In this document: piece by piece, positions 3,680-20,782 of the stretch
Numbering within the stretch: position 1 is the stretch's first letter
How the letters are laid out: the number at the start of each line of letters is the position of its first letter
Virus record (IMG/VR): IMGVR_UViG_3300023179_000090
Strand: one strand, 5' to 3'
DNA from: an uncultured virus (IMG/VR IMGVR_UViG_3300023179_000090)
Taxonomy: Duplodnaviria; Heunggongvirae; Uroviricota; Caudoviricetes; Demerecviridae
DNA: 64,000 bases
Notes under the pieces: model-generated
The model's database searches: none
Told to the model about the DNA's origin: nothing
The model's input: the letters and a program-made list of their open reading frames with translations, nothing else
Translations under genes and position numbers: made by a program

Positions 3680-3757
3680 TTATTGTGTTAGAGAACAATC
3701 GCCAGAAAGCACAACCAACTAAATATCACTATTGCGGTGCTTCCTCTAACACAATAA
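3680..3757 (+). ncRNA. candidate small structured RNA
   Basis: Perfect 14-bp closing stem TTATTGTGTTAGAG/CTCTAACACAATAA starting right at the promoter; no ORF. Confidence 0.45.
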
Positions 3758-3768
3758 AAATTATTTAC

Positions 3769-3797
3769 TTGAAGCCACAACTCAAACCCTGTATAAT
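3769..3797 (+). promoter_or_regulatory. sigma70-type promoter
   Basis: TTGAAG-17 bp-TATAAT. Confidence 0.7.
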
Positions 3798-3837
3798 ATT
3801 TATATTGAGTCAGAGAACAACACAAAGCAACTCTGAC

Positions 3838-3985
3838 CTATTTGTTTAGTGTTATCAAGGTACTGTGTATAGACGTATACACTATTCGGGTTCAATCAGC
3901 CGGAGACGAATCCTAAGATAACTGCATCGGCTTTGCAAGGGAAGCACCCTATTGCTAAATTTGCACGATAGCACTAAACAAATAG
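3838..3985 (+). ncRNA. candidate structured RNA of about 150 nt
   Basis: 19-bp closing stem (3838-3856/3967-3985, one G-U pair) enclosing further hairpins such as GTGTATA..TATACAC; no ORF. Confidence 0.55.
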
Positions 3986-4002
3986 TTAAAAGGAGATAAA
4001 CA

Positions 4003-4179
4003 GTGATTACTTATGGTGAATTGCTTAAGAGGTTGCAAGGTTTTTCTAAAGAACAGCTCAACTGCACAGTAGTAGTCTTAGACCGTGCTTATGATGAGTA
4101 TAACGACATGAGCACTATCTACTTTAGCGGTAGCGAGAATGATGTGTTCGATGAAGACCACCCCATTCTTGTGATCTAA
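4003..4179 (+). CDS. 58-aa hypothetical protein
   Basis: AAGGAG RBS, GTG start, MITYGELLKRLQ...HPILVI. Confidence 0.6.
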   Translation: MITYGELLKRLQGFSKEQLNCTVVVLDRAYDEYNDMSTIYFSGSENDVFDEDHPILVI

Positions 4180-4189
4180 AAATTCTTAC

Positions 4190-4219
4190 TTGATTTATCA
4201 AACCCCCTAGTGCTATAAT
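4190..4219 (+). promoter_or_regulatory. sigma70-type promoter upstream of the large ncRNA candidate
   Basis: TTGATT-18 bp-TATAAT with extended -10 (TGCTATAAT). Confidence 0.65.
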
Positions 4220-4321
4220 ATTATATAAATTGATCTTTTGGGTAAACCAGGACTGCGACCCACCGAGCAGATAAGTTTTTAATTGTTGCTGAACCATTAT
4301 CCTTAGCAACAGCCCAGCCCT

Positions 4322-5140
4322 AACACTGTGTTTTATTAAAATTTAGAGACTGTATGCATCAGGTTGTGTTGTAACTAGTGCAAGGTTTCAAGGTACCAGT
4401 AGGTTCAGGCCAGAACGCGAAAGTACTATAACCAAACACACTACAACCATTTACTCTAAGTTTTAATAAAGCACACTGTAGCTCTGTGGACATGATGGTA
4501 GCAATACCTGAAACGCTGTGGACCTCAGTAGGCTTAGCTAAACCCTGCAACTTGTAGCGGTTTAGGGTCGGACGCACAATGACCTAAAATGAAACGTGCC
4601 TCAGCTAAGTACCCTGAGTTACAAATGGTACAGGTAGCAACTACCAAGTGTTGCGGCTTGCTTACCCGAGAGTTAGGCATCACGGTAGCTCTAAACGCGC
4701 TCAGAGCGAAGGTGTGCTAGGACATAAGCCCCTAGCCCGTGATTAAAATAGTGGTTGTTGACTAGGCTCAAAGATGGTGTGCCATCAACCTAAGTTTCAT
4801 CTAAAGCCACCAAGCCCTAAAGTAACTACAGGCAGAGATGTAGTAGCTACTCTAGGGGCAAACTGCGCCAACAGACTAAAACTGGCAAGGCTATTACACC
4901 AGTGCCGTGTAAGTCGCTATCTACTAATTGCAAGACACCACCTATGAGTGGTGATGTAGGTGCAAGCCCTACTAGCGCCAACTAGCCCATCTCTACTGAT
5001 ACTAGAGACCTAAAGCAGTTGAGAACCCTAATGTTCGTACTAGCACTCCTAGACCCTGGCTAGCTATCCAGCGAAGTCGACGAGCAAAGCTAGACTAGCA
5101 GTAGCAAGCTACTACATAAGTCTACAAAAAACGTACGTTC
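4322..5140 (+). ncRNA. large structured non-coding RNA candidate (GOLLD/ROOL size class)
   Basis: About 800 nt with no credible ORF, bounded by a promoter and a terminator, with dense hairpins including a 21-bp stem at 4328-4348/4454-4474. Confidence 0.6.
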
Positions 5141-5181
5141 TAAAGCCCGCATGTGCCTAGCACGGCGGGCTTTAGTTTTTC
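5141..5181 (+). terminator. Rho-independent terminator
   Basis: TAAAGCCCGC...GCGGGCTTTA stem followed by GTTTTT. Confidence 0.8.
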
Positions 5182-5243
5182 TAAAAACCCCTAGAAAAAA
5201 CAGACTATGCCTTCCAAAAAACTTTTTCCTTGTTTTTTAACAC

Positions 5244-5438
5244 ATGCATGACCCTAAACTGGAACAACTTACAGAAGATGTATGGGAAACAGTGCAGAAG
5301 CTAGATTTCCATCATACCAGATTTGAAATAGCAGCAGCACTAGTACAAATAGGTTTAATCATTTACAAGCAAAACCTTACTAAACAAGAATTTGAAGACC
5401 TCACTAACTATATCGTAAAAACCACACACCTCCTATAG
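5244..5438 (+). CDS. hypothetical protein
   Basis: 64-aa ORF with helical, protein-like composition; weak RBS. Confidence 0.5.
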   Translation: MHDPKLEQLTEDVWETVQKLDFHHTRFEIAAALVQIGLIIYKQNLTKQEFEDLTNYIVKTTHLL

Positions 5439-5454
5439 CAAAGAAAATTTTAGC

Positions 5455-5484
5455 TTGAAAAAGTATCTGAGTGTATGTTATAAT
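5455..5484 (+). promoter_or_regulatory. sigma70-type promoter
   Basis: TTGAAA-18 bp-TATAAT with extended -10 (TGTTATAAT). Confidence 0.65.
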
Positions 5485-5511
5485 CTAGTATAAATTATAA
5501 AATTTAAAAAC

Positions 5512-5645
5512 TAGGGTTGTAGTAAGCGCTAAGGCAGCGGCAAGTACAAAAAACATTGGGAGGATCCACACGGTGGCGGGGCCCAAGATGTTTTTAGGTA
5601 CGTAGCATAGACGCGGCTAGTTAGTGCAATTACTACCAACCCCTA
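5512..5645 (+). ncRNA. rod-like hairpin RNA candidate with a central bubble
   Basis: Nested arms GGGTTG/CAACCC, TAGTAA/TTACTA, GCGCTAA/TTAGTGC, an internal loop, then GTAC/GTAC, AAAAACAT/ATGTTTTT and TGGG/CCCA. Confidence 0.5.
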
Positions 5646-5740
5646 AAGTTAAAAGAGTAAAAATCCGCTAAAAATTAAGTAATTATATTAAATTTTTTTA
5701 CCCCCCCTATTTTTCCACAATTTTCCTAAATAGCTTAAAA

Positions 5741-6555: not shown

Positions 6556-6576
6556 AGGGTCAGAATGGAAAAACAT

Positions 6577-6906
6577 ATGAAATATACTAAAGAAATTACA
6601 GACAAAATTGTTGAAGAATATAAAGCAGGAAGATTGGTTGAGGACATTGCTCAAAGTCTAGATGTCCCTGACCGTAGTATTATAGCTAAATTATCGAGTT
6701 TAGGTGTCTACCAAAAAAAGGTCTACGTCAACAAACGTGGCGAGGTGCCAATCAAAAAGTGGGAGATGATTGAGAGCCTAGCACAAATTTTACAAGTTCC
6801 CAGCGATCAACTAGAATCACTAGAAAAAGTAAACAAAAATGTACTTGTTCTTATAAAAAACCGTTTACTTGACCCTAAACCGCAAAAATTGGACATAATT
6901 AGCTAA
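6577..6906 (+). CDS. T5 A2-like DNA-binding protein, paralog 1
   Basis: Shares IA..L....RSI.AKLS...VY..K.YVNK.GE.P.KK and ESL.K.NK motifs with 8115-8441 and 12618-12941. Start may be 6565. Confidence 0.65.
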   Translation: MKYTKEITDKIVEEYKAGRLVEDIAQSLDVPDRSIIAKLSSLGVYQKKVYVNKRGEVPIKKWEMIESLAQILQVPSDQLESLEKVNKNVLVLIKNRLLDPKPQKLDIIS

Positions 6907-6910
6907 AACT

Positions 6911-6934
6911 AACCCGCCCCTTGGCGGGTTTTTT
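6911..6934 (+). terminator. Rho-independent terminator ending the plus-strand early block
   Basis: AACCCGCC-CCTT-GGCGGGTT followed by TTTT. Confidence 0.85.
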
Positions 6935-7338
6935 ATTGTGTAGACTTGTGAGTTCGGTGCGGTTTAGGGTCAGAAAAATTTACTTGACTGGTTAAGGATT
7001 TGCACTGTATAATGTTGGCGCAAAACCACTAAAATTCTGACCCTAAATTGTGGTTGTTTGTGGGTGCCGAAATGGCCGGTTGAAATTTATGGACTTGATC
7101 AGCTTCTGCAGTTTAGGGTCAGAAATATTTACTTGACAATTGTCAAAGTTTTGCACTATAATGTTGGCGCAGGCGTTCAAAGTTTTCCACTTGTCAAGGA
7201 TTTGCACTGGCGCAGCACACCCTTAGGTGTGCTGAGTTCTAGAACCTAAACCGTTGTGGTTTTTATATCGCTACAAATTCTAGAATTTGGCACGGAATTG
7301 TGATAAATTCTAGAATTTGGTACGGCTTAGGGTCAGAC

Positions 7339-7418
7339 GACAAACGGCGGATTTGACCCGACCAACGGCGGCCGAAACCCTTGACACGTCGCCAAATTTT
7401 ATGGTAAAATTTGGCGCC
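7339..7418 (+). promoter_or_regulatory. cassette 1: paired LytTR-type boxes, sigma70 promoter, TTGGCGCC
   Basis: GACAAACGG (7339) and GACCAACGG (7360); TTGACA at 7381, 18-bp spacer, TAAAAT. Confidence 0.7.
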
Positions 7419-7541
7419 ACATGGTTCTAAATTATATAATTTATAATTGGGCTATGTACATAGCGAGCGCTATAGTTCGTATATAATGAGAATTACTGCG
7501 CTTATGATTTTTATAACAAAATTTGTCGACAAATTTCAGCC

Positions 7542-7620
7542 GACCAGCGGCAGGTTTTAGCCGATAAACGGCGGTGAAAACCCTTGACACGCTGCAATTT
7601 TATATGATAAAATTGGCGCC
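7542..7620 (+). promoter_or_regulatory. cassette 2
   Basis: GACCAGCGG (7542) and GATAAACGG (7563); TTGACA at 7584; TGATAAAAT; TTGGCGCC. Confidence 0.7.
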
Positions 7621-7713
7621 CCCGCTATAAAAATTATAGCGGTCTAAATTCTATAATTTAGACCGCTATAATTTTTATATCATTCTAAATTATAGAATTT
7701 AGAATGATATACG

Positions 7714-7742
7714 AAAAATAACGGCCCTGATCGGGCCGTTAT
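7714..7742 (-). terminator. terminator for the minus-strand operon
   Basis: ATAACGGCCC/GGGCCGTTAT stem followed by a T-run on the minus strand. Confidence 0.7.
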
Positions 7743-7754
7743 GGTTTCTAGAAC

Positions 7755-8060
7755 CTAGTCAACTAGGTCATGCTCAACGAATACGTCTACAATGTGAGCA
7801 GGCATCTTTACAGTTTCCATATCGCTCCAGCGTCTAAGTGCGATAAGCTCGCCCATCTTGCGATCAAACTTATCATTACTAGAACACCAAGCAAAGCTTA
7901 CGTTATAAAATTTAGCATTGCCACGGTCGATGGTAGGTTCGCAAACCATAGTCATGCCAGGTTCTAGATCGTTCGGTTTTTTAGAATGAACAAATCCGCC
8001 AAATTCGCGCAAAAACGCTTTGAGGTTTTTACGTTCCAATTTTTGAGTAGTGGTAAGCAT
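7755..8060 (-). CDS. hypothetical protein
   Basis: AGGA RBS; WCSSNDKFDRKMGELIAL motif typical of small phage proteins. Confidence 0.7.
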   Translation of the reverse strand: MLTTTQKLERKNLKAFLREFGGFVHSKKPNDLEPGMTMVCEPTIDRGNAKFYNVSFAWCSSNDKFDRKMGELIALRRWSDMETVKMPAHIVDVFVEHDLVD

Positions 8061-8114
8061 AGTATAATTCCTAGAGTGTTGTGAATTTTATAGCGGGGCC
8101 GAAGCCCCTAAGAT

Positions 8115-8441
8115 CTATAACGGCTTGCTATTTGCTAGCGCATCGAAAATCGCCTTGAGAGCCGATTTGTTCGCTTTGGTAAGCGATTCGATGTCGTTTT
8201 CGCTCAAGCGCAGGATCGCGCCGATAGCATCAGCCGTTACATCTTTTTTAACGGGTTTTTCGCCGTTCTTGTTTACATAACTTTTAGCGATGTAAACTTT
8301 TTCACGGGAAAGTTTCGCTACAATTGAGCGAACGGTTTTACCAAGTGCCGACGCAATTTCAGCGACGGGCACACCTGCCTGATAATCTGCTATAATCTTA
8401 GCAGTTTGCTCAGGCGTATAGTTGACAGCCTTTTCAGCCAT
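8115..8441 (-). CDS. T5 A2-like DNA-binding protein, paralog 2
   Basis: AGGAG RBS; HTH-like IASALGKTVRSIVAKLS; resembles my recollection of T5 A2 in size, position and motifs. Confidence 0.7.
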   Translation of the reverse strand: MAEKAVNYTPEQTAKIIADYQAGVPVAEIASALGKTVRSIVAKLSREKVYIAKSYVNKNGEKPVKKDVTADAIGAILRLSENDIESLTKANKSALKAIFDALANSKPL

Positions 8442-8581
8442 TGCTATAACTCCTAGATCGTGGGGGCTTGCGGTATTGCTTCCCTGCCACAGAAACCATT
8501 ATACACGCTTTATGGGCCTAGAATGTCGCCCAGACGACAATTGGCTGCCATTTGTCGGACGAATGGTCGGCGGTATCGTCC

Positions 8582-8664
8582 GACCAGCGGCACCTACCCC
8601 CCGACGAACGGCGGTCCGCGGGGGTTGACACGCGGCCAAAAATTATGATATAATTTTTGGCGCC
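8582..8664 (+). promoter_or_regulatory. cassette 3
   Basis: GACCAGCGG (8582) and GACGAACGG (8603); TTGACA at 8625, 18-bp spacer, TATAAT; TTGGCGCC. Confidence 0.7.
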
Positions 8665-8699
8665 ATATGGCTATAATTTTTATAACGATTTGATGTGCC

Positions 8700-8790
8700 G
8701 ATAAACGGCAGACACCACCCGACAAATGGCAGCAAAATCCCTTGACACGCGGCAAAAAATTATGATATAATTATATCATAATTTTGGCGC
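8700..8790 (+). promoter_or_regulatory. cassette 4
   Basis: GATAAACGG (8700) and GACAAATGG (8721); TTGACA at 8742; TATAAT; TTGGCGCC, then an AGCGCTC...GAGCGCT palindrome. Confidence 0.7.
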
Positions 8791-8828
8791 CAGCGCTCTA
8801 AATTCTATAATTTGGAGCGCTAAATTAT

Positions 8829-9218
8829 TTATAACATTCTAACAATTGGATCGTTTTTATTTATATAATATTCATGGGTTGCCGCTGGTGGCAAGCCATA
8901 CTGTTGCATCATCTTGCACCACATAGGCCCATGCCAAAAGTTGGTAGGATCTTCGCCGTTGATTATAAAATCTGCAACGTGGATTAGTTCATGCGGTACA
9001 ATTACACAAAGCATCTCATGTTTATAACGGTTAAAAAACTTGCTACCAAATTCTACCTCATGAACCTCGCAGTGGGCAAAGCCCGCAGTGCGATACAGTC
9101 TGTTATTGATTCTAACTTTTGGAACCTTATGGTTTTTTAGTTGGGGCCACAATTCCTGCATTGCCGACCAATGCAGGGCTACAGCGGCTGTTACAACTTT
9201 TATCAACGAATCGGCCAT
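8829..9218 (-). CDS. SprT-like Zn metallopeptidase
   Basis: RLYRTAG, PHELIH (HExxH) and WHGPMW motifs. Confidence 0.8.
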   Translation of the reverse strand: MADSLIKVVTAAVALHWSAMQELWPQLKNHKVPKVRINNRLYRTAGFAHCEVHEVEFGSKFFNRYKHEMLCVIVPHELIHVADFIINGEDPTNFWHGPMWCKMMQQYGLPPAATHEYYINKNDPIVRML

Positions 9219-9454
9219 ATCTTATACCTTAAAATTATTGCTACAAGAAACAGATTGATTGCGTAGTTTGCTATAAGAATTATATCGCCCTTGGGTACGA
9301 TATAAACAATCATGAAAACTTCACCCCAAAACCACATCATTAAAAAAGGCCAGGTTAGACCGTCTGAATTTTTACAACGATATGATTCTAGGGCTTGGGG
9401 TACTGCCGAAAAGGCGAGCATTAGCCCGCCAAGCCAACCTAGAATGTCAAGCAT
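9203..9454 (-). CDS. PQ-loop / SemiSWEET-like small membrane protein
   Basis: 83 aa, three hydrophobic helices, GWLGG...AVPQ...KNSDGLT, W..G and AN motifs. Confidence 0.75.
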   Translation of the reverse strand: MLDILGWLGGLMLAFSAVPQALESYRCKNSDGLTWPFLMMWFWGEVFMIVYIVPKGDIILIANYAINLFLVAIILRYKIWPIR

Positions 9455-10133
9455 TGAAATGATCCTTGACCTGAAAGTTAGCCCATGAATAGTTACAAAT
9501 TTTAGATTGCCAATCTTTAGTTGCTATAACTTTTAGTAGCACAGGAATTTCATAGCCTGTTATATCTTCTAGAGCAGTATGTGGTTCTTTGGTGAAAGTA
9601 CCCGTTACAAAACCTGCAACAGCTTCTGCATCTGTTCTAAAAGTCATATTGCCACGCTCGGTGGGAGCATTGAACAGATGGTTCTGCAAAACATAACGCA
9701 AGTATGCTTTGCGGTGGCAAATGATTGCCGATGCCGCGTGCCATAGGCAAAACCTATTAGTGAAACCGTCTAGTATAATTCCTGTATTGCTACATTTTTC
9801 AGAATCAAATGTTAGGTTGTATGCGGTAAGCGTAGGGTTATAAAGTGTAATACATTTATCAAGCCAGCGATTGATAGCACCTACTGATGCCACAACGCGA
9901 CGACCATCATCTAGCATAGTGTTATAATTTTTGATACGACGCTCAAGATTAGCAGCATTGAAAAAACCGGTTTTCTCATTGTACCAAAGTGTAGAAAGTT
10001 CTAAATCTTTGACAATGACGGCAATACTGTCATAGATTTTACCACGACGATCAACGATAACTGCTGCAAAATCTATAACCTTGTTGTCGATGGTGGTTTC
10101 GGTATCGACGATGCAAAAGTATTGCTGTTTCAT
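9447..10133 (-). CDS. DEDDh (DnaQ-like) 3'-5' exonuclease
   Basis: VDTETT, AYNLTFD and EPHTALED motifs. Confidence 0.85.
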   Translation of the reverse strand: MKQQYFCIVDTETTIDNKVIDFAAVIVDRRGKIYDSIAVIVKDLELSTLWYNEKTGFFNAANLERRIKNYNTMLDDGRRVVASVGAINRWLDKCITLYNPTLTAYNLTFDSEKCSNTGIILDGFTNRFCLWHAASAIICHRKAYLRYVLQNHLFNAPTERGNMTFRTDAEAVAGFVTGTFTKEPHTALEDITGYEIPVLLKVIATKDWQSKICNYSWANFQVKDHFNA

Positions 10134-10230: not shown

Positions 10231-10309
10231 GACCAGCGGTCGATAGCACCCGACGAACGGTCGACGAAACCCTTGACACGCTGCAATTTTATATGATAAA
10301 ATTGGCGCC
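10231..10309 (+). promoter_or_regulatory. cassette 5
   Basis: GACCAGCGG (10231) and GACGAACGG (10252); TTGACA at 10273; promoter sequence identical to cassette 2. Confidence 0.7.
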
Positions 10310-10355
10310 ACCGATATAAAAATTATATCGGTATGTTTTTTATAACGTGGAACCA

Positions 10356-10371
10356 TGTTCCACGTGGAACC
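10356..10371. promoter_or_regulatory. parS: parS-like site
   Basis: TGTTCCACGTGGAACC, with an extra half-site ACGTGGAACC just upstream. Confidence 0.75.
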
Positions 10372-10544
10372 TAGTCCCAAAACTCTTCAGGTTCGCTGTT
10401 ATAAAGTTTGTAAAGGTCATCGTACATTCTAGCCAGCCAGCTAGGATCGTTCCAATCTTTGAATGTTCCAAAACTTGGAACAACCGCATACATTTTCTCG
10501 TAGAGTGTTATAAAATCTAGCTGAAGTTGTGTTATGGTTTTCAT
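10371..10544 (-). CDS. hypothetical protein (57 aa)
   Basis: AAGGA RBS before MKTITQ; start adjusted from the ORF track. Confidence 0.6.
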   Translation of the reverse strand: MKTITQLQLDFITLYEKMYAVVPSFGTFKDWNDPSWLARMYDDLYKLYNSEPEEFWD

Positions 10545-10545
10545 A

Positions 10546-11019
10546 TTAGTGTCCTTGTTTGCTTGGAATGTAAACGCCTTCGATACAAAAATAATCACAA
10601 ACCGCTTTGAGATATTGGATGTTATCCTCATAGAAGGTTATATCTTCTATATCGAACATATCTCTGTATTCTTCAATGATAGGCTTGAGTCCGTAAACCT
10701 TGAGAGTAGCACCCGACGAAACATCGCCTTCCGCTCTACTAACTATATGGTCAGGATCGCCTAACTTTGTGCTAATAAATGTAAGATCAGCGTCCCGCAA
10801 AATGCGGGCAGTAGCGATAATAACAATACAGTCTGGATCAGCGTTATCTTTTTTATATTGTTCTGCAAGTGGTAACAAGCTGTCGTCCATTGCACGATGC
10901 TCATTCGCACGCCAGTAGCCAAGGTCGATACGCTCGCCGTTGTTATCAAAAATAGTACGGTAGCGATGTAGTGAGCAAACGATTGTGCCATCCATGTCAT
11001 AAATTGCTATCCTTTTCAT
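10546..11019 (-). CDS. HAD-superfamily phosphatase
   Basis: YDMDGT (motif I), IATAR (II), K (III), FYEDN (IV). Confidence 0.85.
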   Translation of the reverse strand: MKRIAIYDMDGTIVCSLHRYRTIFDNNGERIDLGYWRANEHRAMDDSLLPLAEQYKKDNADPDCIVIIATARILRDADLTFISTKLGDPDHIVSRAEGDVSSGATLKVYGLKPIIEEYRDMFDIEDITFYEDNIQYLKAVCDYFCIEGVYIPSKQGH

Positions 11020-11105
11020 TACAGTGTTCCTTGTTGGTTGCTATGCGCTAATTATACATGCAAGTCAATGCCGTTGAAACCCCCTAAATCGACCACAGAT
11101 CAGAC

Positions 11106-11186
11106 GACCAGCGGCGGATTTGAGCCGACGAACGGTCACCAAAACCCTTGACACGCTGCAAAATTATATAGTATAATTTTGGCGCC
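11106..11186 (+). promoter_or_regulatory. cassette 6
   Basis: GACCAGCGG (11106) and GACGAACGG (11127); TTGACA at 11148; TATAAT; TTGGCGCC. Confidence 0.7.
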
Positions 11187-11208
11187 ATCGCTATAAAAAT
11201 TTGAGCGT

Positions 11209-11370
11209 TCAAATTTTTATAGGTTCCACGTGGAACCTGTGCTTGGTTTCACCGTTTTTCTGTTCTAGTTTTTTATTACGATGCTTGCCTGCACCGGTTT
11301 GGGTACGCAAGTGCCCCTGTCGGGGCTTTTGTCCTAGTTTATAGATCGGTTGTACAGGTATAATTTTCAT
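11209..11370 (-). CDS. 53-aa basic peptide MKIIPVQPIYKLGQKPRQGHLRTQTGAGKHRNKKLEQKNGETKHRFHVEPIKI
   Basis: ATGA overlap with the upstream gene; not in the ORF track. Confidence 0.55.
   Translation of the reverse strand: MKIIPVQPIYKLGQKPRQGHLRTQTGAGKHRNKKLEQKNGETKHRFHVEPIKI
11222..11237. promoter_or_regulatory. parS: parS-like site
   Basis: Perfect palindrome GGTTCCACGTGGAACC. Confidence 0.7.
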
Positions 11371-11591
11371 AATAGTCTAGGCTTTCCAAAACCGCGTTTG
11401 TCCATTTCACCACGAACGCTATCAATCATATAACAGTTGCGCTCGTAGCTAATGTAATCGTTTTCATAATCCCAATAACTGGCCGCGCTACCATCAAAAT
11501 AGTCTAGCAGTTCATCGTTGAGATCTAGCAACTCTTGGTTTGATATAGTTGCTAGATCAGTGCCATCAGGCAACATAATTGTAAAATTCAT
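11367..11591 (-). CDS. hypothetical protein
   Basis: Overlap-coupled within the operon; GAGGAG upstream. Confidence 0.65.
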   Translation of the reverse strand: MNFTIMLPDGTDLATISNQELLDLNDELLDYFDGSAASYWDYENDYISYERNCYMIDSVRGEMDKRGFGKPRLL

Positions 11592-11878
11592 AACATCAGC
11601 TCCTCAGCAGGGTAAGTAATTTTCCCATCAAATTCAAGTTGTTGTTGTTCAAATTGTGTAACATAATCATCATTAACCAGTTCCCAGCCAATGATATATT
11701 CTTTAGTATAGTCGCCATCGTGTTCGATCATATCTTTAGCTAAAAGCATTTTAGCCAATGCCTCAGCATCATCTGCTACGTTTTTTATAAAGTAATCATT
11801 GCCACCCTTCATTTTCCAGTAGGGGTTATGGGCTGAACCGTAGTTCTCGCAAAATTGTGTAGTGATTATAATTTTCAT
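11588..11878 (-). CDS. hypothetical phage protein
   Basis: GAGG RBS; TQFCENYG...PYWKMKGG motif. Confidence 0.75.
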   Translation of the reverse strand: MKIIITTQFCENYGSAHNPYWKMKGGNDYFIKNVADDAEALAKMLLAKDMIEHDGDYTKEYIIGWELVNDDYVTQFEQQQLEFDGKITYPAEELML

Positions 11879-11879
11879 A

Positions 11880-12065
11880 TCAAACCTCGTATCGTTTAGC
11901 TAATTGTTCCTGATGCTTTGCCATTTTAGCATAAGCGTCGCTTTTTGCAATATTGCCTGCAACTGTTTCATTTTTTGAAATGATCCAGTATGCTTCAGCA
12001 TTGCGACGAGCAATGCGAAGCTTTACTTGTCGCATAAACTCGCTATATTTTCTGTTACGGTTCAT
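11880..12065 (-). CDS. basic hypothetical protein
   Basis: GAGGA RBS before MNRNRKY; start adjusted from the ORF track. Confidence 0.6.
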   Translation of the reverse strand: MNRNRKYSEFMRQVKLRIARRNAEAYWIISKNETVAGNIAKSDAYAKMAKHQEQLAKRYEV

Positions 12066-12159
12066 CTTGCTATCCTCTGTCTTGCTATGCTTGTAATTAT
12101 ACACCTATTCTAGTCTGCTGTTGTGCTATCTGTCGGCTATAACCTGCCACACATCAGCC

Positions 12160-12241
12160 GACCAGTGGTAGCTATAACCCGACGAACGGTAGCTGCAAGG
12201 GGTTGACACGCTGCAAAATTATATAGTATAATTTTGGCGCC
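12160..12241 (+). promoter_or_regulatory. cassette 7
   Basis: GACCAGTGG (12160) and GACGAACGG (12181); TTGACA at 12203; promoter sequence identical to cassette 6. Confidence 0.7.
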
Positions 12242-12278
12242 AGCGCTATAAAAATTATAGCGATTTAATTTTTATAGC

Positions 12279-12294
12279 TGTTTCACGTGAAACA
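12279..12294. promoter_or_regulatory. parS: parS site (perfect consensus)
   Basis: TGTTTCACGTGAAACA. Confidence 0.8.
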
Positions 12295-12617: not shown

Positions 12618-12941
12618 CTACTGGTTAGAACGGATGAAGGCTACAATTGCGGCAAGCGCAGTCTTGTTCGCCTTCGTCAGAGAATCTATATCATTCTCTG
12701 AAAGGTTGAGAGCCGCACCAATGAAGTCCGCGTGAACGTCCTTTTTGATGGGAGCTTCACCGTTCTTGTTTACATAACTCTTGGCTACGTAAACCTTTTC
12801 ACGTGAGAGCTTAGCAACCACGCTACGAACAGTCTTGCCAAGATTGTGGGCAATCTGATCTACAGCCATGCCAGCTTGGTAATCGCTTACCATGCGAGCA
12901 GTCTGCTCTGGTGTATAATTAGGGGCTTTGGCTTCTGCCAT
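12618..12941 (-). CDS. T5 A2-like DNA-binding protein, paralog 3
   Basis: Close paralog of 8115-8441; AGGAG RBS; first gene of the minus-strand block. Confidence 0.7.
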   Translation of the reverse strand: MAEAKAPNYTPEQTARMVSDYQAGMAVDQIAHNLGKTVRSVVAKLSREKVYVAKSYVNKNGEAPIKKDVHADFIGAALNLSENDIDSLTKANKTALAAIVAFIRSNQ

Positions 12942-13045: not shown

Positions 13046-13289
13046 GGGTTGAGTTGATTCTAATCTTTAGTACAACTTTTGTAATAGATTATAGAATTTA
13101 TATTATAATAGATTATAGAATTTATAACATACTAGGGCGGTTATTAGACCGTTATATTATCTAGAACGGTGGGGCCCTCCAACACGGCCTATTTTTAAAA
13201 ATTTTTGAAAATCCCTAAGGTGCCAAAATCTACACTTGATTATAATTAACAAATCAGATATAATCAAACTAACCACAGGAGCACAGATC

Positions 13290-14069
13290 ATGGACTACAA
13301 AACCATAGCAATCTCCGACGTACACCTAGGCAGTCGTGGATGTAAGGCTAAATTATTGCTCAACTTCTTAAAAAGTAATAACTGTGAAACACTATATCTC
13401 ATAGGAGATATAATAGATGCATGGAAAATACAACAAAACAAGTGGTACTGGCACCAATCACACACAGATGTAGTTCGTGAAATACTTAAAAAAGCCAAAC
13501 GTGGCACCCAAGTTGTATGGATTGCAGGTAATCACGACGAATTTTTACGCCCACTAATTCCTTATAATATTACCTTTGGTAGTATAGTAATAGCCAATCA
13601 GTGGGTACACAGTGGCATAGATGGTAACCGTTACCTATTAGTACACGGCGACTTATTTGATGGTATTACTAGACTAGCCCCATGGATAAGCTTTTTAGGC
13701 GATAAAGCCTACGATGTCTTATTAACCGTCAATACTAAGTATAACTGGTGGAGACATAAATTGGGATTTGGTTATTGGTCGCTGTCAAAGTACTTAAAGC
13801 ATAAAGTAAAGCGCGCTATAGATTTTATGTTTCAATTTGAGCTAAACTTAGCCAACTACTGTACCAGAAAAAAATTTGATGGTATAATTTGCGGACATAT
13901 ACATCGTGCTGAAATCAAAGAACTAAATGGTATAGTATACATGAACACCGGCGATTGGGTTGAGTCATGTACTGCAATATTAGAACACTATAATGGTACC
14001 TGGGAGTTGGCAGAGTGGCACGAGATAAAGCATGAAGATAATATGGACCCTAAGCCTCCTAGTCATTAA
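13290..14069 (+). CDS. PlcP-like / LpxH2-type metallophosphoesterase (putative phospholipase C)
   Basis: SDVHLGSRGCKA, GDIIDAW, WYWHQSH.DVV, GNHDEFLR, HGDLFD, LGDKAYD, YWSLS, ICGHIH and Y.NTGDWVESCTA motifs; AGGAG RBS before MDYKT. Confidence 0.8.
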   Translation: MDYKTIAISDVHLGSRGCKAKLLLNFLKSNNCETLYLIGDIIDAWKIQQNKWYWHQSHTDVVREILKKAKRGTQVVWIAGNHDEFLRPLIPYNITFGSIVIANQWVHSGIDGNRYLLVHGDLFDGITRLAPWISFLGDKAYDVLLTVNTKYNWWRHKLGFGYWSLSKYLKHKVKRAIDFMFQFELNLANYCTRKKFDGIICGHIHRAEIKELNGIVYMNTGDWVESCTAILEHYNGTWELAEWHEIKHEDNMDPKPPSH

Positions 14070-14223
14070 CATCTACGACCCTAACGATATACCAGGTCGT
14101 ATTACACTACAATTACCCAGTCAACAAGTATGCGAACAAGCCATACAATCTATAACAAGCTATGTAAAATTTCCCTGGTTCAAGGTAGAGGCTCGCTGTG
14201 AAAAAAATCTTAGTAATAACTGA
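14032..14223 (+). CDS. small hypothetical protein, possibly secreted, with two Cys
   Basis: Bridges the two enzyme genes with overlaps; hydrophobic N-terminus. Confidence 0.55.
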   Translation: MKIIWTLSLLVINIYDPNDIPGRITLQLPSQQVCEQAIQSITSYVKFPWFKVEARCEKNLSNN

Positions 14224-15190
14224 TAATCTACCAGACCAAGTCAATGGAGTGGTTACTACCTATGCGAATTTGGCCAAGGTTGCACTTGGTCATGGTTATC
14301 TTATTGATTACTGTGATCCCTCTAGGTTCTACTATATTGATTGCCCTGGCTATAAAGAAGTCAAGCTTGCCTTACCTTACAAAATGGCCCAGGCGATTTC
14401 GTCGTCAGCTGCAGATTATTATCACATCGCCACAGAAGGTCCTGTTGGTCTTAGTGCTAGAGCATATCTTACAAGTCGTGGTATTAGGTATAATACTAGC
14501 TATCATACTAGATTTCCTGAAGGTCTGGACACTCTTTTAGGCATTCCACCCAATTTAACTTGGCGTTATATACGCTGGTTTCATAAACATAGTGGTCGTT
14601 GCTTAGCAACTACTCAAAGTGTTGCTAGTGAACTACAATCTCGTGGTATTGACAATGTTGTGTGTTGGACTCGTGGAGTTGATCAAATGTTATTCAACCC
14701 ACAACCACGCAACCCTAAACCTTATAAGACACTGTTATGTGTTAGTCGTGTTAGTCGTGAGAAAAGTTTAGAGCGTTTTTGTGAGCTCCAGATCCCAGGT
14801 ACCAAGAAGGTCCTAGTAGGAGACGGCCCACATCTTAATTATTTACGTAGTCACTATAGTGATGTAGAATTTGTGGGAATGAAACTAGGAGTAGAGTTAG
14901 CCGACTACTATCAACAAGCAGATGTGTTTGTGTTCCCCAGCCGTTGGGATACTTTTGGTATTGTTATGCTAGAAGCAATTGCCTGCGGCACGCCTATAGC
15001 AGCCTACCCCTGCAATGGACCACTAGATGTTGTTGAGTCGGGTGTTAATGGTTATTTGAATGAAGATTTAAGTTTAGCTGTTCAACAGTGTTTTAGTCTT
15101 AATAAAGCTAAGGTATACCTTTCAAGTACAAAGTGGACCTGGCAGCGTTGCTGGGAAATTTTTCACAACAATTTAGTGGAGCCACTATGA
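14198..15190 (+). CDS. GT4 family glycosyltransferase (Agt-like)
   Basis: TD...QVNGVV, HIATEGPVG, TSYHTRFPE, RVSREK, VGDGP and FVFPSRWDTFGIVMLEAIACGTP motifs. Confidence 0.9.
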   Translation: MKKILVITDNLPDQVNGVVTTYANLAKVALGHGYLIDYCDPSRFYYIDCPGYKEVKLALPYKMAQAISSSAADYYHIATEGPVGLSARAYLTSRGIRYNTSYHTRFPEGLDTLLGIPPNLTWRYIRWFHKHSGRCLATTQSVASELQSRGIDNVVCWTRGVDQMLFNPQPRNPKPYKTLLCVSRVSREKSLERFCELQIPGTKKVLVGDGPHLNYLRSHYSDVEFVGMKLGVELADYYQQADVFVFPSRWDTFGIVMLEAIACGTPIAAYPCNGPLDVVESGVNGYLNEDLSLAVQQCFSLNKAKVYLSSTKWTWQRCWEIFHNNLVEPL

Positions 15191-15660
15191 CAACTCATCT
15201 ACCAGCAGAAACTATTAGGATTAGTCCAGAAGCACTTGAAATAGCTAACTGCTACTTACAAGTGCAAGATGCACGTAAGGTTGCCAACGAACTAGACATA
15301 GACCAAGACATAGTAATAACTACACTAGCTCGTCGTGAGGTACGTGGCTATATTGATCAAGTATTTTTTGATACCGGCTACAACAACAAATTTTTAATGC
15401 GACGTGCCATGGACGCACTTATACAGCAAAAGTTTCAGGAGTTAGAGGAGTCGGGAGTTGGCAGCTCAAAAGACATTGCTGAACTGCTCAGCTTATCACA
15501 CAAAATGAGCATGGACCTACTAGATCGTGAAATTCAATTAGAAAAACTCAAGCAAGGTAGTAGTGGGCCGCAAAAGCAGGTAAATGTGCAAATCAATGAA
15601 GGTGATGGATCAAAGTACGGTCAATTAATACACAAACTAATTAGTGGTGATGGTGTATAA
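15187..15660 (+). CDS. terS: terminase small subunit (T5-like)
   Basis: ISPE...YL, EV..YI..VF...G, KFQELEESG.GSSKDI and HKM motifs; directly upstream of TerL. Confidence 0.8.
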   Translation: MTTHLPAETIRISPEALEIANCYLQVQDARKVANELDIDQDIVITTLARREVRGYIDQVFFDTGYNNKFLMRRAMDALIQQKFQELEESGVGSSKDIAELLSLSHKMSMDLLDREIQLEKLKQGSSGPQKQVNVQINEGDGSKYGQLIHKLISGDGV

Positions 15661-15717
15661 TGTTGTTCGCACTACTGTTAAGCATTTTAGCAACAATATT
15701 ATTAGTAGAAATTTTAC

Positions 15718-17010
15718 ATGCTAATCGTAAGTCGTGAAGATATAGACTGTGAACATATCACAGAGTTTGACCCTAGTAGTAGGTTTATTAAGCTACCTAT
15801 AGACAACTACTTAAAGCTCCTAAATCTCTACGATACGATAAATCGTCCACAGATTGCACTAATCAATAGTGTCAATAATCCTAAATATAGATTTATCTGT
15901 GCAGCACTTGCACGTAGACTAGGAAAAACTTATATAGCCAATGTGATCGGTCAATTGGTAACACTAGTACCAAATTGCAATGTACTTATTATTAGTCCAA
16001 ACTATAATCTTAGCAGCATTTCATTCGAGCTGCAGCGTAGGTTGATCAAACACTTTGACCTAGAAGTACAGCGTGATAATATTAAAGATCGTGTTATTGA
16101 ACTACAAAATGGTTCAACTATTAGAATGGGTTCAGTAGGCACAGTAGATTCAACAGTTGGCAGGTCGTACGATCTTATTATATTTGATGAAGCTGCTCTT
16201 AGTGAGCGTGGAGAAGAAGCATTTAATATTGCACTGCGCCCAACACTAGACAAGCCTCATGCTAAGGCCATATTTATTAGTACGCCACGCGGCAAAAACA
16301 ACTGGTTTAGTCGTTTTTGGCAGCGTGGATTTGATAGTAATTTTCCAGAGTGGTGTAGCTTGCAAGCTGACTATACAGAAAATGTTCGCATGGCTGAATC
16401 AGATGTGGAAGAGGCACGTCGTACGTTGCCTAAATCAGAGTTTGAGCAAGAATATATGGCTAGTTTTAGTAGCTATCTAGGACAAATTTACGAAGGCTTT
16501 AGTAGTGAGTATATCTTAGATGAGTTACCAGAAGGTTTACGTGGTGAAGCAATTGCTGGATGTGATCCAGGTTATCGAGATGCAACAGCTTGGGTTAATA
16601 TCATCTATGATCATAGTAGTGATAAATTCTACTGTGTTAGTGACTACTTAGAGTCAGAGCGTACCACTCGTGATCATGCACAAGCATTTCAGCAAATGAT
16701 AGATCATTGGCAAACATCAATAATATTTATTGATAGTGCAGCAGCACAGTTTGCATCGGATCTAGCTTACAACTACGATATAGCAACTACACGCGCTAAA
16801 AAAGATGTATTACCTGGTATTGCTTATGTGCAAACCATTATACAACAAGGCAGATTATTAGTACACAAAGATTGCCAACATGTACTAGCAATGTTAGATC
16901 AATATCGTTGGGATAATCGTGAAGGATTAACCAAAGAACGCCCTAAGCATGATGAATATAGTCACATAGCTGATGCCCTACGCTATGCACTGTACAGCTA
17001 TGTTATTTAG
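15718..17010 (+). CDS. terL: terminase large subunit
   Basis: Walker A RRLGKT, Walker B IIFDEAA, ISTP coupling motif, RNase H-like DPG and DALRYA. Confidence 0.95.
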   Translation: MLIVSREDIDCEHITEFDPSSRFIKLPIDNYLKLLNLYDTINRPQIALINSVNNPKYRFICAALARRLGKTYIANVIGQLVTLVPNCNVLIISPNYNLSSISFELQRRLIKHFDLEVQRDNIKDRVIELQNGSTIRMGSVGTVDSTVGRSYDLIIFDEAALSERGEEAFNIALRPTLDKPHAKAIFISTPRGKNNWFSRFWQRGFDSNFPEWCSLQADYTENVRMAESDVEEARRTLPKSEFEQEYMASFSSYLGQIYEGFSSEYILDELPEGLRGEAIAGCDPGYRDATAWVNIIYDHSSDKFYCVSDYLESERTTRDHAQAFQQMIDHWQTSIIFIDSAAAQFASDLAYNYDIATTRAKKDVLPGIAYVQTIIQQGRLLVHKDCQHVLAMLDQYRWDNREGLTKERPKHDEYSHIADALRYALYSYVI

Positions 17011-17543: not shown

Positions 17544-18705
17544 TTGGATAGTTGAAAAACTTAATCCAGCACAGTATAGTATACATACAGACGAAGGTAC
17601 AAACATAGGGTCACAAGCCCGCATTGTAAACTTTCGCAGTGCATTTAAAAATATTGATAGTGTTAATAGATCTATCAATATGGTAGTTAGCGCTTGCGCT
17701 AGCTTAGACTATGATATAAAAGATAAAGTACATGAAGGTGTTGTTAATGGCATGCGTCAAAAAACCTTAGCAACACTACTAAATTTTAGACCAAATCCTT
17801 ATCAAAGCGCCGTAGAATTTCGTACCGAACTATTTAAAGATATACTACTAGATGGCAATGCATTTGTGCATTTTGACGGTGCTTTTATGTATCATCTACC
17901 GGCTAACAATGTAGAAATTATCACAGATCCTAAAACGTATATTCGTGGCTTTCGCTATAATGGCAAAGTTGATTTTGGCGATAGTGAGGTATTCTACTTT
18001 AAAGACCTAAACGGTGATAGTATCTATCGTGGAGCTAGCCGACTAGAAGCTTGCTTAGAAAATATAAGCATACTTTACAGCATGCAAGAATTTCAGCAAA
18101 AGTTTTTTGATAATGGCACGATATTTGGACTAGTACTAACAACTGACAATACACTATCGCAGGTTGCCAAGGAAAAAACTATACAGTACTGGCAACAGAG
18201 ATACAATGCTAAAAGTGGTGGACGTCGTCCAATTATCTTGGACTCGGGATTAAAACCACAAAAATTAAGTGAGCAGAATTTTAGTGATTTAGACTTTGAT
18301 GTTGCTATGCGCACTCATAGTGAGCGCATAATGACTGCAGTAGGAGTTCCACCTATATTATTAAATGGTGGTAATAATGCTAATATATCTCCTAATCTTA
18401 GATTATTTTACTTAGAAACTGTTTTACCGCTAGTAAGATTATACAACAGCGCACTTGAAAGATATTTTGGCTATGATATAGCACCAGTTATTAGTAATGT
18501 TAGCGCATTGCAACCAGAACTAAAAGATGTTGCCAGCTATCATCAAACACTGGTAAATGGCGGTATTATAACACCAAATGAAGCCAGAGTAGAACTAAGG
18601 TATCCAACCATAGCAGGCGGAGATACCATAAGAATACCTGCTAATATAGCAGGTTCAGCAGCCAATCCATCCTTGGGTGGTAGGCCTAGTGAAAAGAAGG
18701 AGTAA
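17521..18705 (+). CDS. portal protein (HK97 type)
   Basis: LNFRPNPYQS, LLDGNAF, GVPPILL and GIITPNEAR motifs. Confidence 0.93.
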   Translation: MAFEKIRSWIVEKLNPAQYSIHTDEGTNIGSQARIVNFRSAFKNIDSVNRSINMVVSACASLDYDIKDKVHEGVVNGMRQKTLATLLNFRPNPYQSAVEFRTELFKDILLDGNAFVHFDGAFMYHLPANNVEIITDPKTYIRGFRYNGKVDFGDSEVFYFKDLNGDSIYRGASRLEACLENISILYSMQEFQQKFFDNGTIFGLVLTTDNTLSQVAKEKTIQYWQQRYNAKSGGRRPIILDSGLKPQKLSEQNFSDLDFDVAMRTHSERIMTAVGVPPILLNGGNNANISPNLRLFYLETVLPLVRLYNSALERYFGYDIAPVISNVSALQPELKDVASYHQTLVNGGIITPNEARVELRYPTIAGGDTIRIPANIAGSAANPSLGGRPSEKKE

Positions 18706-18706
18706 T

Positions 18707-20782
18707 ATGAAAACAAAACTGGAAAAATTACTCTATTTAAGCAGTAAGTTTACAGCTAGTACAGACTCTGATGATAGCATTTTTATTGAAGGATATGCTA
18801 GCACAGTAGACCGCGATCGTCAAGGTGATGTAATTCCCATGTCTGCATGGACACAGGGATTAAAAAATTACCTTAAAAATCCAATCATACTAGCCTATCA
18901 CAATCATCAGATGCCAATTGGTAAAATGGTTGAGCATAAGGTTACTGACCAGGGTTTGTGGATTAGAGCACAGATTCCTGCGGAAGTAGGTGACGTATAC
19001 AAACTGGTTAAAAAGGGTATATTAAGTGCATTTAGCGTAGGTTTTAGAGTACGTGATGCAGATTATGATCACGCTAGTGAATCGTTTTTGATTAAAGACC
19101 TAGAACTGCATGAAATCAGTGTAGTTTCAGTACCTGCAAATCAAAACACACTATTTAGTTTAGCCAAGGCATTTGACACTGCCGAAGATTTTGAGTCATT
19201 TAAACAGCAATTTGCACTAGCACCAAAGGCATCAGCTAAACAGCTAGATACCCCACGAGCAGCAAAAAGCACAACAAACGAGGAATGGGACATGGATCCA
19301 AAAGAATTAGAGAAATTATTAGCAGATGCTGCTGCTAAAGCTGCTGAACAAACTGCTAAAGCTGTGCTAGAAGCACAAACAAAAGCTGCTGAAGACGCAA
19401 AGCGTAAAGAAGCCGAAGAAGAAATGCTACAAGCTAAGATCAAGGCCGCAGTTAACGCCGTTGCTCCTACAGCCCCAGTAATTCAAACAGTTGATACAGG
19501 TGCAGAACGCCTCCTAGCAGACGTTGAAAAGCGCCTAGAAGATCAAGCCAATGAGCACAAGAGTGCTATTGAGAATCTACAAGCTGCTATCAAAGAAAAG
19601 GCCAAAGAGCTAGAGCAGCTACAAAACAAGAGTGGCGAAATTGAAGCTCTACAAAAGAGCCGTATGCAGTTTACTGAGCCCAAGCATGACGACGTTTCCT
19701 ACGAAGATAAGGAAAAGGCCGTTCTAATCAGTAAGATCATGCGCAAACAAATGCATGAAACCAAGTTTGGTAAGCAGTTACTAGAAAAAGCTGCTGCTAG
19801 CTTTGGTGCTTATGGTGGTACAACCGGTAGTGCACGTCTACCAGACCAGCGCTGGGAAGAAGAAGTTAGCACAAACATTCAAAACGAAATGCGCCGTCAG
19901 CTAGTAGTAACACCTACAATTCGTAGTATTGCTATGGCACAACCAGTTATGAAGATTCCTGTAAACCCAGAAGCAGGCGAAGCAACATGGGTTATTGGAG
20001 CAGGTGCTAGTGAGCGTTTAGTTTATAATACTAGTGCTAGTAGTGGAGACGCCGTTGTACATCAGCTAAAAGAAGTTACTCTAACAGCTTATAAACTAGC
20101 TACTAAAGAGTATATCGCATTTGAAGAAGATGAAGATGTACTACTTCCAATCCTACCTCTAGTACGTGATGCTATGGCACGTCGTATGGCTAAGAGTGTT
20201 GATAAAGCAATGCTACTAGGAGCCGCTGGAGCTGCAGACCCAATTAAAGGTCTAGCTACATACGATCCAGCCCTAGGTACAAGTGGTGATCCAACAGCTC
20301 CTCTAGTTACAATCAGCTTAGCTGGTAATGCAGATAGTACTGGTGCAGTTACAAGCAAGAAGTTTACTGTTGCCAAGGCAATGGAAGCTCGCCGTAACTT
20401 AGGTGCTTGGGGTCTAAATCCTAGCGAACTAATTATGTTTGTAAGCACACAAGCTTATTATGAACTAATGGAAGATAGTAACTTCCTAACAGTTGACAAA
20501 GCTGGTCCTGCTGCTACTCTATTTACAGGTCAAGTAGGTAGCGTTGGTAACACACCAGTTCTAGTTAGCTCAATGTTCCCAGCTGCAACAGCCGGTAATC
20601 CAGCTGCTGTAATTTTCAATCCAATGAACTTTATGGCTGGTACACACCGTGGTATGCGCGTTGACAGTGATGACGAAGTTATCAATCAGCGTAGCGTACT
20701 AGTTGCAAGTATGCGTATTGGTTTAACACAGCTATCAACAGTTGATGGCCAAGGTGTTGTAGCAGTTCGTTATATCGCTTAA
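18707..20782 (+). CDS. prohead protease fused in frame to the HK97-fold major capsid protein
   Basis: N-terminal IEGYAST..DRQGD, HNH..PIG, FSVGF and EISVVSVPAN; a coiled-coil delta-like domain; capsid-like C-terminal half; AAGGAG RBS before MKTKL. Confidence 0.9.
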   Translation: MKTKLEKLLYLSSKFTASTDSDDSIFIEGYASTVDRDRQGDVIPMSAWTQGLKNYLKNPIILAYHNHQMPIGKMVEHKVTDQGLWIRAQIPAEVGDVYKLVKKGILSAFSVGFRVRDADYDHASESFLIKDLELHEISVVSVPANQNTLFSLAKAFDTAEDFESFKQQFALAPKASAKQLDTPRAAKSTTNEEWDMDPKELEKLLADAAAKAAEQTAKAVLEAQTKAAEDAKRKEAEEEMLQAKIKAAVNAVAPTAPVIQTVDTGAERLLADVEKRLEDQANEHKSAIENLQAAIKEKAKELEQLQNKSGEIEALQKSRMQFTEPKHDDVSYEDKEKAVLISKIMRKQMHETKFGKQLLEKAAASFGAYGGTTGSARLPDQRWEEEVSTNIQNEMRRQLVVTPTIRSIAMAQPVMKIPVNPEAGEATWVIGAGASERLVYNTSASSGDAVVHQLKEVTLTAYKLATKEYIAFEEDEDVLLPILPLVRDAMARRMAKSVDKAMLLGAAGAADPIKGLATYDPALGTSGDPTAPLVTISLAGNADSTGAVTSKKFTVAKAMEARRNLGAWGLNPSELIMFVSTQAYYELMEDSNFLTVDKAGPAATLFTGQVGSVGNTPVLVSSMFPAATAGNPAAVIFNPMNFMAGTHRGMRVDSDDEVINQRSVLVASMRIGLTQLSTVDGQGVVAVRYIA

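Follow-up and report, generated by a model that had tools for sequence, protein, structure and literature searches.

The DNA considered here is a stretch of 64,000 nucleotides (the window) from an uncultured virus, IMG/VR record IMGVR_UViG_3300023179_000090, a siphovirus whose terminase, portal and tail genes are of the T5 type and suggest a lytic lifestyle. Between small minus-strand genes ahead of the terminase lie three 16-bp palindromes with the sequence of parS, the site at which the bacterial partition protein ParB loads onto DNA, each of them at the end of a promoter cassette (Table 1). The comparisons described below support the view that these predicted sites are of the chromosomal type and are under selection for ParB-like recognition.

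Table 1 Features of the parS region and its surroundings (window positions; parS distances count from the start inferred for the cassette promoter)
Feature	Position	Strand	Remarks
parS site 1	10356..10371		5C/12G variant; about +48 to +63
Decayed tandem parS	10339..10354		One half-site intact; 17 bp before site 1
parS site 2	11222..11237		5C/12G variant; about +39 to +54
parS site 3	12279..12294		Exact canonical chromosomal sequence; about +41 to +56
Promoter, cassette 1	10273..10302	+	Near-consensus sigma-70, 11/12; 18-bp spacer
Promoter, cassette 2	11148..11177	+	Consensus sigma-70, 12/12
Promoter, cassette 3	12203..12232	+	Consensus sigma-70, 12/12; -10 region palindromic
Predicted AlgR/LytTR-type box pair, cassette 1	10231..10261	-	21 bp apart; proximal box exact AlgR element
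Predicted AlgR/LytTR-type box pair, cassette 2	11106..11136	-	21 bp apart; proximal box exact
Predicted AlgR/LytTR-type box pair, cassette 3	12160..12190	-	21 bp apart; proximal box exact
First cargo palindrome, cassette 1	10310..10332		AT-rich
First cargo palindrome, cassette 2	11191..11222		
First cargo palindrome, cassette 3	12244..12278		
Two cassettes lacking parS	8582..8821	+	Promoters at 8625 and 8742
Non-coding palindrome/repeat cluster	6930..7750		Between converging gene blocks; + strand promoters at 6984, 7133, 7381 and 7584
Homologue of Dmp (T5 pre-early deoxynucleoside monophosphate phosphatase)	10546..11019	-	E 4e-13, 35% over 85 aa; shares its PHROG with T5 Dmp
228-aa protein	9447..10133	-	DEDDh/RNase T-like exonuclease candidate; nearest named clusters 0.93–0.95
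T5 A2-like DNA-binding protein	12618..12941	-	phrog_1725 profile; pairwise comparison not significant
Second A2-like protein	8115..8441	-	77% identical to the 12618..12941 protein
Third A2-like protein	6565..6906	+	Beyond the palindrome cluster
Terminase, small and large subunits	15133..17010	+	Landmark; inferred first-entering end at about 13.0–15.1 kb

An original prediction, made from the letters of the window, had placed three parS sites at exactly these positions, and this proved right to the base: with at most one mismatch allowed, the 14-bp parS core is present exactly three times in 64 kb, as compared to 0.12 on average and 1 at most in 100 shuffles. Site 3 is exact, and sites 1 and 2 depart from the chromosomal consensus only at positions 5/12 and at the ends. 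The accompanying statement that the window holds no other copy needs qualification, since no further match with up to two mismatches outside positions 5/12 was found elsewhere in the window, but a decayed fourth copy stands directly before site 1; two intact parS sites at the same 17-bp spacing occur in three other loci (L008, L035 and L187). The slot of site 1, between the Dmp homologue and the 228-aa gene, is the cassette position at which relatives most often keep parS. A chance origin is ruled out by the shuffles together with the enrichment of parS in the cassettes of relatives, and bacterial contamination or misassembly is excluded because dozens of independent contigs have the sites flanked by phage genes. 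A 53-codon frame on the minus strand (11209–11370) crosses site 2 and gave tblastn matches in the two closest relatives only; it probably does not constrain the site, and its basic middle may resemble that of ribosome-rescue peptides.

The cassettes have a fixed order, consisting of two 10-bp boxes spaced 21 bp apart (at about -53 and -74), a sigma-70 promoter on the plus strand, a first palindrome or operator at about +8 to +30, and parS at about +40 to +60. It had been claimed that each parS follows a promoter/palindrome cassette at the 3' end of a minus-strand operon; this holds, with the refinement that the promoters, which have no gene, are on the plus strand and point at parS, so that transcription from them would meet the minus-strand operon head-on at its 3' end. 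LytTR proteins follow a tandem-site rule. A box pair with 21-bp spacing lies upstream of the -35 region in all seven window cassettes checked, and the three exact AlgR elements are distributed one per parS cassette, as compared to a mean of 0.025 in shuffles. With the 10-bp element, the tandem arrangement and the position upstream of a promoter, the pairs are predicted to be AlgR/LytTR binding sites. The first palindrome of cassette 3 has a spacing that presumably resembles that of LysR-type sites, and the DNA of this cassette gave short matches only with cultured phages. Six more promoters of the cassette type, lacking parS, are found at 6984–8771. The consensus for the AlgR element was taken from the literature (PMC3592444, Table 1).

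For conservation, the best 80 of 327 IMG/VR stretches with a matching terminase (72–90% identity) served as relatives. A cassette is visible at 35 of these 80 terminase loci, and in 33 of the 35 parS lies inside it; the remaining 45 loci show no cassette, nearly all of them because the contig ends too early. A scan with the cassette pattern gave at least 237 loci and, after dereplication, 240 cassettes including those of the window. Of these 240, 33 have parS downstream, as compared to none of 225 on the upstream side, 5 of 237 at a greater distance and none in shuffles, and strict matches fall inside the pre-early block in nine of the ten long records that have one. Both members of a pair with identical terminases (G001 and G002), which jointly appear to cover about 104 of an estimated 105 kb, carry parS. 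A lack of conservation in relatives had been named as a finding that would speak against the original prediction; parS is present in most cassette-bearing terminase loci, in a pattern of variation that follows the tolerance of ParB.

This variation was followed in 41 flank-distinct parS sites, for which the core was demanded by the search and positions 1, 5, 12 and 16 were left free. All 41 sites have T or C at position 5 and A or G at position 12, and 39 have T at position 1, at a flank conservation of just 32–68%. The chromosomal ParB of B. cenocepacia, as far as the data given for it go, tolerates changes at positions 1/16 and transitions at 5/12 (PMC5450999); outside the list of changes tolerated there, the central positions 8/9 vary in four of the 41 sites and positions 14/15 in two. 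The phage sites thus share with chromosomal ParABS systems the same 16-bp sequence and its tolerated variants (PMC7022226; PMC5450999), the difference being that those of the window are on a phage and distant from any parAB or oriC.

A palindrome downstream of a strong promoter could also act as RNA. The view that the sites are hairpins or terminators in short transcripts of the cassettes, instead of protein sites, would agree with the strong folding predicted for these transcripts (z -3.6 to -5.7) and with terminator-like hairpins downstream of 53 cassettes in the sense and 56 in the antisense direction, of 240, as compared to 11 and 11 of 237 controls. The parS sequence is conserved rather than its pairing, however, because a C-A mismatch is present at positions 5/12 in 8 of the 41 sites and positions 1/16 are paired in only 20. 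Furthermore, the parS arms pair with other bases in two of the three window folds, Rfam has no match for the cassette region, and the proposal that parS replaces a terminator was rejected (operon-strand terminator in 5 of 33 parS cassettes versus 57 of 207 others, p 0.20). This explanation is hardly tenable.

The 5C/12G variant of sites 1 and 2 had been noted as the one used by Pseudomonas. It does not point to Pseudomonas as the host: among 251 sampled genomes of the class to which G040, a Methylococcaceae bin, belongs, 41 have the exact sequence of site 1, as compared to 1 for the control. In the five genomes checked for the distance to parB, three have the sequence at 17–28 kb from this gene, one has it at the far end of the same contig and one on another contig.

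No ParA or ParB family was reported by a PHROGs scan of 50 window proteins (best five families each) or a Pfam scan of 19, which bears out the earlier impression that the window has neither gene. Among related records, ParB_N was detected in none of 36, of which 13 are at least 90% complete, and HTH_ParB in none of five. A partition system of the phage itself was accordingly rejected, within the limits that parA was not searched in the relatives and that the window is part of a genome. Relative G023 is 93% complete and has parS in the block, and the ParB_N search found no parB in it. Phage-plasmids of the P1/N15 type also have parS-type sites on phage DNA, and they encode their own ParA and ParB with a centromere of their own, of which none was found here.

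A phage-encoded protein that binds the palindromes had been listed as one of the findings that would overturn ParB loading. The block indeed encodes three A2-like DNA-binding proteins, and the palindromic -10 region seen in 150 of the 240 cassettes may well be an operator for such a protein. As binders of parS itself, with a resemblance to the chromosomal site by convergence, they fit poorly: site 3 matches the chromosomal consensus at all 16 positions, the variation tracks what ParB tolerates, the exact site-1 sequence is bacterial and near parB where checked, and the A2-like genes are present with or without parS. We regard such operators as very improbable, and the three palindromes, taken alone, as very probably genuine loading sites for host ParB, as judged from their sequence. 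Outside the family, at least 132 viral loci have a canonical parS (L330–L461), with none of the window's cassette family among the matches listed, and six of the eight such records that are at least 90% complete lack ParB_N, again among the matches listed; chromosome-type parS sites in ParB-less viruses may be widespread.

The position of the sites in the genome can be judged from the likeness to T5. The terminase is 45–48% identical to that of Vibrio Demerecviridae among the 40 best matches listed, and none of these comes from a cultured relative above 48% identity. Sequencing runs containing at least half of the sampled words were lake or freshwater metagenomes (six runs from three studies, one possibly the source sample). 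Four matches in genome assemblies were not accepted as hosts, being phage contigs in taxonomically scattered bins; the AlgR-, SlmA- and Fur-type boxes suggest that the host is probably a proteobacterium. The layout of the block, with a palindrome cluster, small genes on the minus strand and then the terminase, is as in T5, PG07 and Ceto. The palindrome cluster, by its place, would be the positional analogue of the injection stop signal of T5. The 228-aa protein, which has no Pfam match, is probably a DEDDh/RNase T-like exonuclease, to be taken as a lead only. A SprT-like protease and a PQ-loop membrane protein are also encoded among the pre-early genes (8829–9454, minus strand).

Differences from T5 exist as well. 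The dmp and A2 genes are on the strand opposite to that of the terminase, unlike in T5, and A1 was found in none of nine family records, with T5 detected as positive control; a phosphoesterase at 13236 was considered as a stand-in for A1 and rejected for lack of a significant alignment. Since A1 was not found and dmp and A2 are on the opposite strand, the phage is best called T5-like and is not assigned to Demerecviridae, a family in which A1 is stated to be conserved in all members (preprint text, 10.64898/2026.04.02.716235). Phosphoesterase and glycosyltransferase genes (13236–15190) occupy the interval from the block to the terminase and are present in some relatives only.

By analogy, the parS block would be the homologue of the pre-early terminal repeat of T5, whose terminase-side end enters first according to the annotation of the T5 record. 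Contig depth is raised at about 6.7–13.3 kb in three DNA runs, which, being summed over strains, gives a hint only; the RNA run consists of contigs and informs on neither strand nor transcription. The description of the parS region as first-injected DNA of a lytic-type phage therefore stands as regards homology with the first-injected repeat of T5 and the T5-type genes, and is conditional as regards the end itself and the order of entry.

A key property of the sites is that they can be exchanged. Downstream of the 240 cassettes, a Fur-like palindrome is present in 15 and an SlmA-type site in 11, with less than one expected from shuffles; patterns for FNR, CRP, LexA and NarL-like regulators gave 0 of 240 each and the Pho box 1 of 240, and those for sigma-54, DnaA and three others were commoner upstream than downstream. 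The Fur pattern was a variant that differs from the published consensus, and the labels Zur, sigma-54 and PhaR given to cargo sites are putative. The SlmA consensus came from published work (PMC3020112). Relative G023 has three SlmA-type, seven sigma-54-type, four Zur-type and one Fur-type site next to a single parS, G028 has five parS and six Fur-type sites, and some other relatives have neither. The partner sites adjoining parS differ from cassette to cassette. On a terminase tree of 40 rows (three of 43 loci were omitted for a short or missing terminase), parS requires four changes, one of them due to the truncated locus L072, and it is absent from 23 rows (two outgroup phages and one truncated locus included), many of which keep the same cassettes and genes; long branches join near the root, and the tree is used to claim patchiness only. 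From these sequence patterns, parS is one exchangeable cargo among several predicted host-protein sites of a repeated cassette. Dense arrays of SlmA-, sigma-54- and Fur-type sites were seen at the stop-signal position in two loci (L326 6123–6446, of G023, and L319 465–776). Two further cargoes were seen (L462–L480), a frequent one, up to 11 per genome, that resembles the PsrA element, and another short palindrome.

Cultured T5-like phages have host-type boxes in the corresponding place. The T5 genome (AY543070, L322) has four Fur-like and two LexA-like boxes per repeat and none outside the terminal repeats, with controls at 0; among them, at 6213, 9411 and 9552–9709, are a run of Fur-like boxes and two LexA-like ones that are nearly perfect. 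Whole-genome scans likewise confined such boxes to the repeats of Ceto and the matching block of PG07 (controls 0). The LexA consensus used in these scans is one that we assume to be adequate. In the corresponding region PG07 (L323 2025–2445) and Ceto (L324 487–790) have Fur-like, DnaA, sigma-54-type and LexA-like sites, and there is no parS in this region of T5, PG07 or Ceto, with one 1-mismatch match elsewhere in T5. The stop signal of T5 resembles the cassettes in that it belongs to a related phage, lies at a similar position and is repeat- and palindrome-rich non-coding DNA holding host-protein sites; it differs by eight ordered DnaA boxes, whereas the window lacks such an octet (one box, at 5711, in 3.7–13.2 kb), by the possession of A1, and in that the window cassettes are dispersed between operons. 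DnaA boxes in the stop signal have already been proposed as anchors (Davison, 10.1101/866236). The main text of this preprint mentions no parS, ParB, LexA or Fur box, and a term search of the text of the BF23 paper (PMC10644984) gave neither Fur nor LexA. In the open-access literature, excluding subscription papers and preprint supplements, we found no paper that deals with parS in T5-like phages, with the cassette or with Fur/LexA boxes in the T5 stop signal.

These observations would be accommodated by a docking array through which host proteins would keep hold, in cis, of the DNA that has entered first, an interpretation that we favour tentatively, although the balance is still somewhat against it. 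The cassette would combine a strong gene-less promoter for host RNA polymerase with high-affinity sites for abundant host binders, as predicted from sequence: AlgR-type boxes and parS in the window clade and Fur-, SlmA-, Zur- or sigma-54-type sites in relatives. If the T5 homology holds, a block of about 6 kb enters first with the terminase side leading, so that parS would arrive within the first few kb, and host proteins would act in cis at entry, when one copy of the genome is present. Host polymerase, repressors and ParB clamps that spread out from parS may be too large to pass back through the ejection channel, and bound proteins could serve both as a non-return catch and as a coat on the entered DNA; ParB may also tether this DNA to the nucleoid via host ParA. 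Since any tight and abundant binder would do, cargo could be freely swapped between lineages, and action in cis at entry is favoured because the tight sites are interchangeable and restricted to the block that would enter first. A mechanism that specifically needs ParA or SMC is disfavoured, as parS is swappable and many relatives lack it. The proposal that the phage loads host ParB on its leading end is thus supported in part, by the parS type of the sites, their conservation, the failure to find parB and the likeness of the block to the T5 repeat.

A different use of the same sites would be decoy titration, in which, after replication, hundreds of repeat copies absorb ParB, SlmA, Fur, Zur, LexA, DnaA and polymerase, so that host segregation or division is blocked and metal uptake derepressed. 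The cargo is rich in cell-cycle and metal regulators, and the family was found to lack the host-DNA nuclease A1. T5 itself makes a pre-early division inhibitor, and filamentation may help phages (10.64898/2026.04.02.716235, in the text available). Against this, titration would work from anywhere in the genome, but the sites are restricted to the pre-early block, and three sites would be insufficient to drain ParB at entry. Moreover, according to the same preprint T5 degrades host DNA within minutes by means of A1, and because it retains its boxes while doing so, action in cis is to be preferred over titration, which we consider improbable.

The strongest rival to the docking array is transcription control by host state, since the geometry of the cassettes is that of activator plus repressor sites. 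The cassettes would then be divergent control regions where host regulators, an AlgR-type activator and Fur, Zur and other repressors, tune the head-on promoters and weak leftward pre-early promoters in such a way that lytic progress tracks host physiology; ParB at about +40 to +60 would be a roadblock or a spreading silencer. The consistent box pairs with their exact AlgR elements are in line with this, as is a perfect palindrome arm of at least 7 bp starting within 20 nt of the start site in 159 of 240 cassettes, as compared to 14 of 237 controls. Precedents are the CtrA sites in terminal repeats or gaps of phages of Alphaproteobacteria, associated with lytic deferment, and the Spo0A sites of phi29 (both described in PMC9437464, the consulted text of which has no mention of parS). 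The CtrA phages are similar to the window family in concentrating host-regulator sites in the direct terminal repeats of lytic phages (PMC9437464), but they use one regulator of phage genes, whereas the family described here has a mosaic of sites for unrelated binders at gene-less promoters, non-regulatory chromosome sites included. It is also difficult to reconcile with sensing that the strong promoter has no gene, that parS, SlmA sites and arrays of up to seven sigma-54 sites (G023) are ill-suited to gene control, and that relatives with identical gene sets have unrelated operators. On the whole, sensing seems unlikely, in spite of the good fit of the geometry.

The right end of the Bacillus phage phi29 enters first. 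Its genome (EU771092) has five parS sites, all in the right half and three within the last 3.4 kb, and no parB is annotated. This virulent phage uses host Spo0J/ParB and becomes entrapped in the spore (cited in PMC9437464). Partition of the phi29 type, in which host ParAB would position or segregate the phage genome as a mini-chromosome while the infection of slow-growing lake bacteria is deferred or in a carrier state, is thus a further explanation for which a precedent exists. Both phages have several chromosome-type parS sites without a parB of their own, together with boxes for host regulators (Spo0A, at promoters, in phi29; PMC9437464), and if A1 is lacking the host chromosome and ParA may persist during infection. 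The two phages are unrelated, and the Gram-positive sporulating host and spore entrapment of phi29 contrast with a probable proteobacterial host and with parS sites that are swappable within a repeated promoter cassette. Partition would not need sites inside promoter cassettes or in a terminal block, and it agrees poorly with the absence of parS from so many tree rows in which cassettes and genes are often kept; we give it little credence. That a lytic phage exploits host ParB is already known from phi29, and host-protein sites in terminal repeats are known for DnaA and CtrA.

Several points weigh against the docking array. With few sites per kb, little pulling force can be expected. The protein that T5 needs for second-step transfer, A1, was not found, so that a paused two-step entry is not established, and the boundaries of the repeat follow from homology and from a depth rise that is summed over strains. 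The fixed spacing of boxes and operator resembles transcription control, and both the binding of ParB and the host are deduced from the DNA itself. A T5 mutant from which hegG to 017 are missing remains infective, with smaller plaques (preprint text, 10.64898/2026.04.02.716235); if contiguous, this deletion removes one LexA/DnaA block.

It is conceivable, but doubtful at present, that T5-like phages in general build a host-matched docking array, in which bound proteins act as a ratchet, anchor or stop for DNA entry. The binders, collected per lineage, would include ParB, SlmA, Fur, Zur, LexA, DnaA, AlgR and sigma-54 in addition to sigma-70 polymerase; the stop signal of T5 would be a plug of Fur, LexA and DnaA proteins, and the parS cassettes its freshwater equivalent. 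Such a wider array is more surprising than the parS sites themselves. The halt and resumption of T5 DNA transfer has been unsolved for decades, and the stop signal has so far been described in terms of repeats and DnaA boxes. The Fur-like and LexA-like boxes of T5, taken together with the slot for parS, SlmA, Zur or sigma-54 sites in the large freshwater sister group, make the hypothesis testable in laboratory E. coli. The use of host ParB by lytic phages would be extended beyond phi29 to probable Gram-negative hosts, and cargo sets may aid in predicting the hosts of uncultured phages.

Some other features of the DNA deserve mention. A single 701-aa frame (18677–20782) encodes the prohead protease joined to the major capsid protein, whereas the two are separate in cultured T5-like phages. 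A collagen-like tail fibre measures 3510 aa (41892–52424), and several further tail proteins of very large size are encoded after the tape measure gene. Beyond the palindrome cluster, about 2 kb at 3700–5700 has no long frame, several promoters and inverted repeats, and gave no Rfam match. Finally, in LUZ24/PaP3-like phages an AlgR-like box lies beside the -35 region, inside or near the short terminal repeat (Pseudomonas phage Clew-1, L325 100–125).

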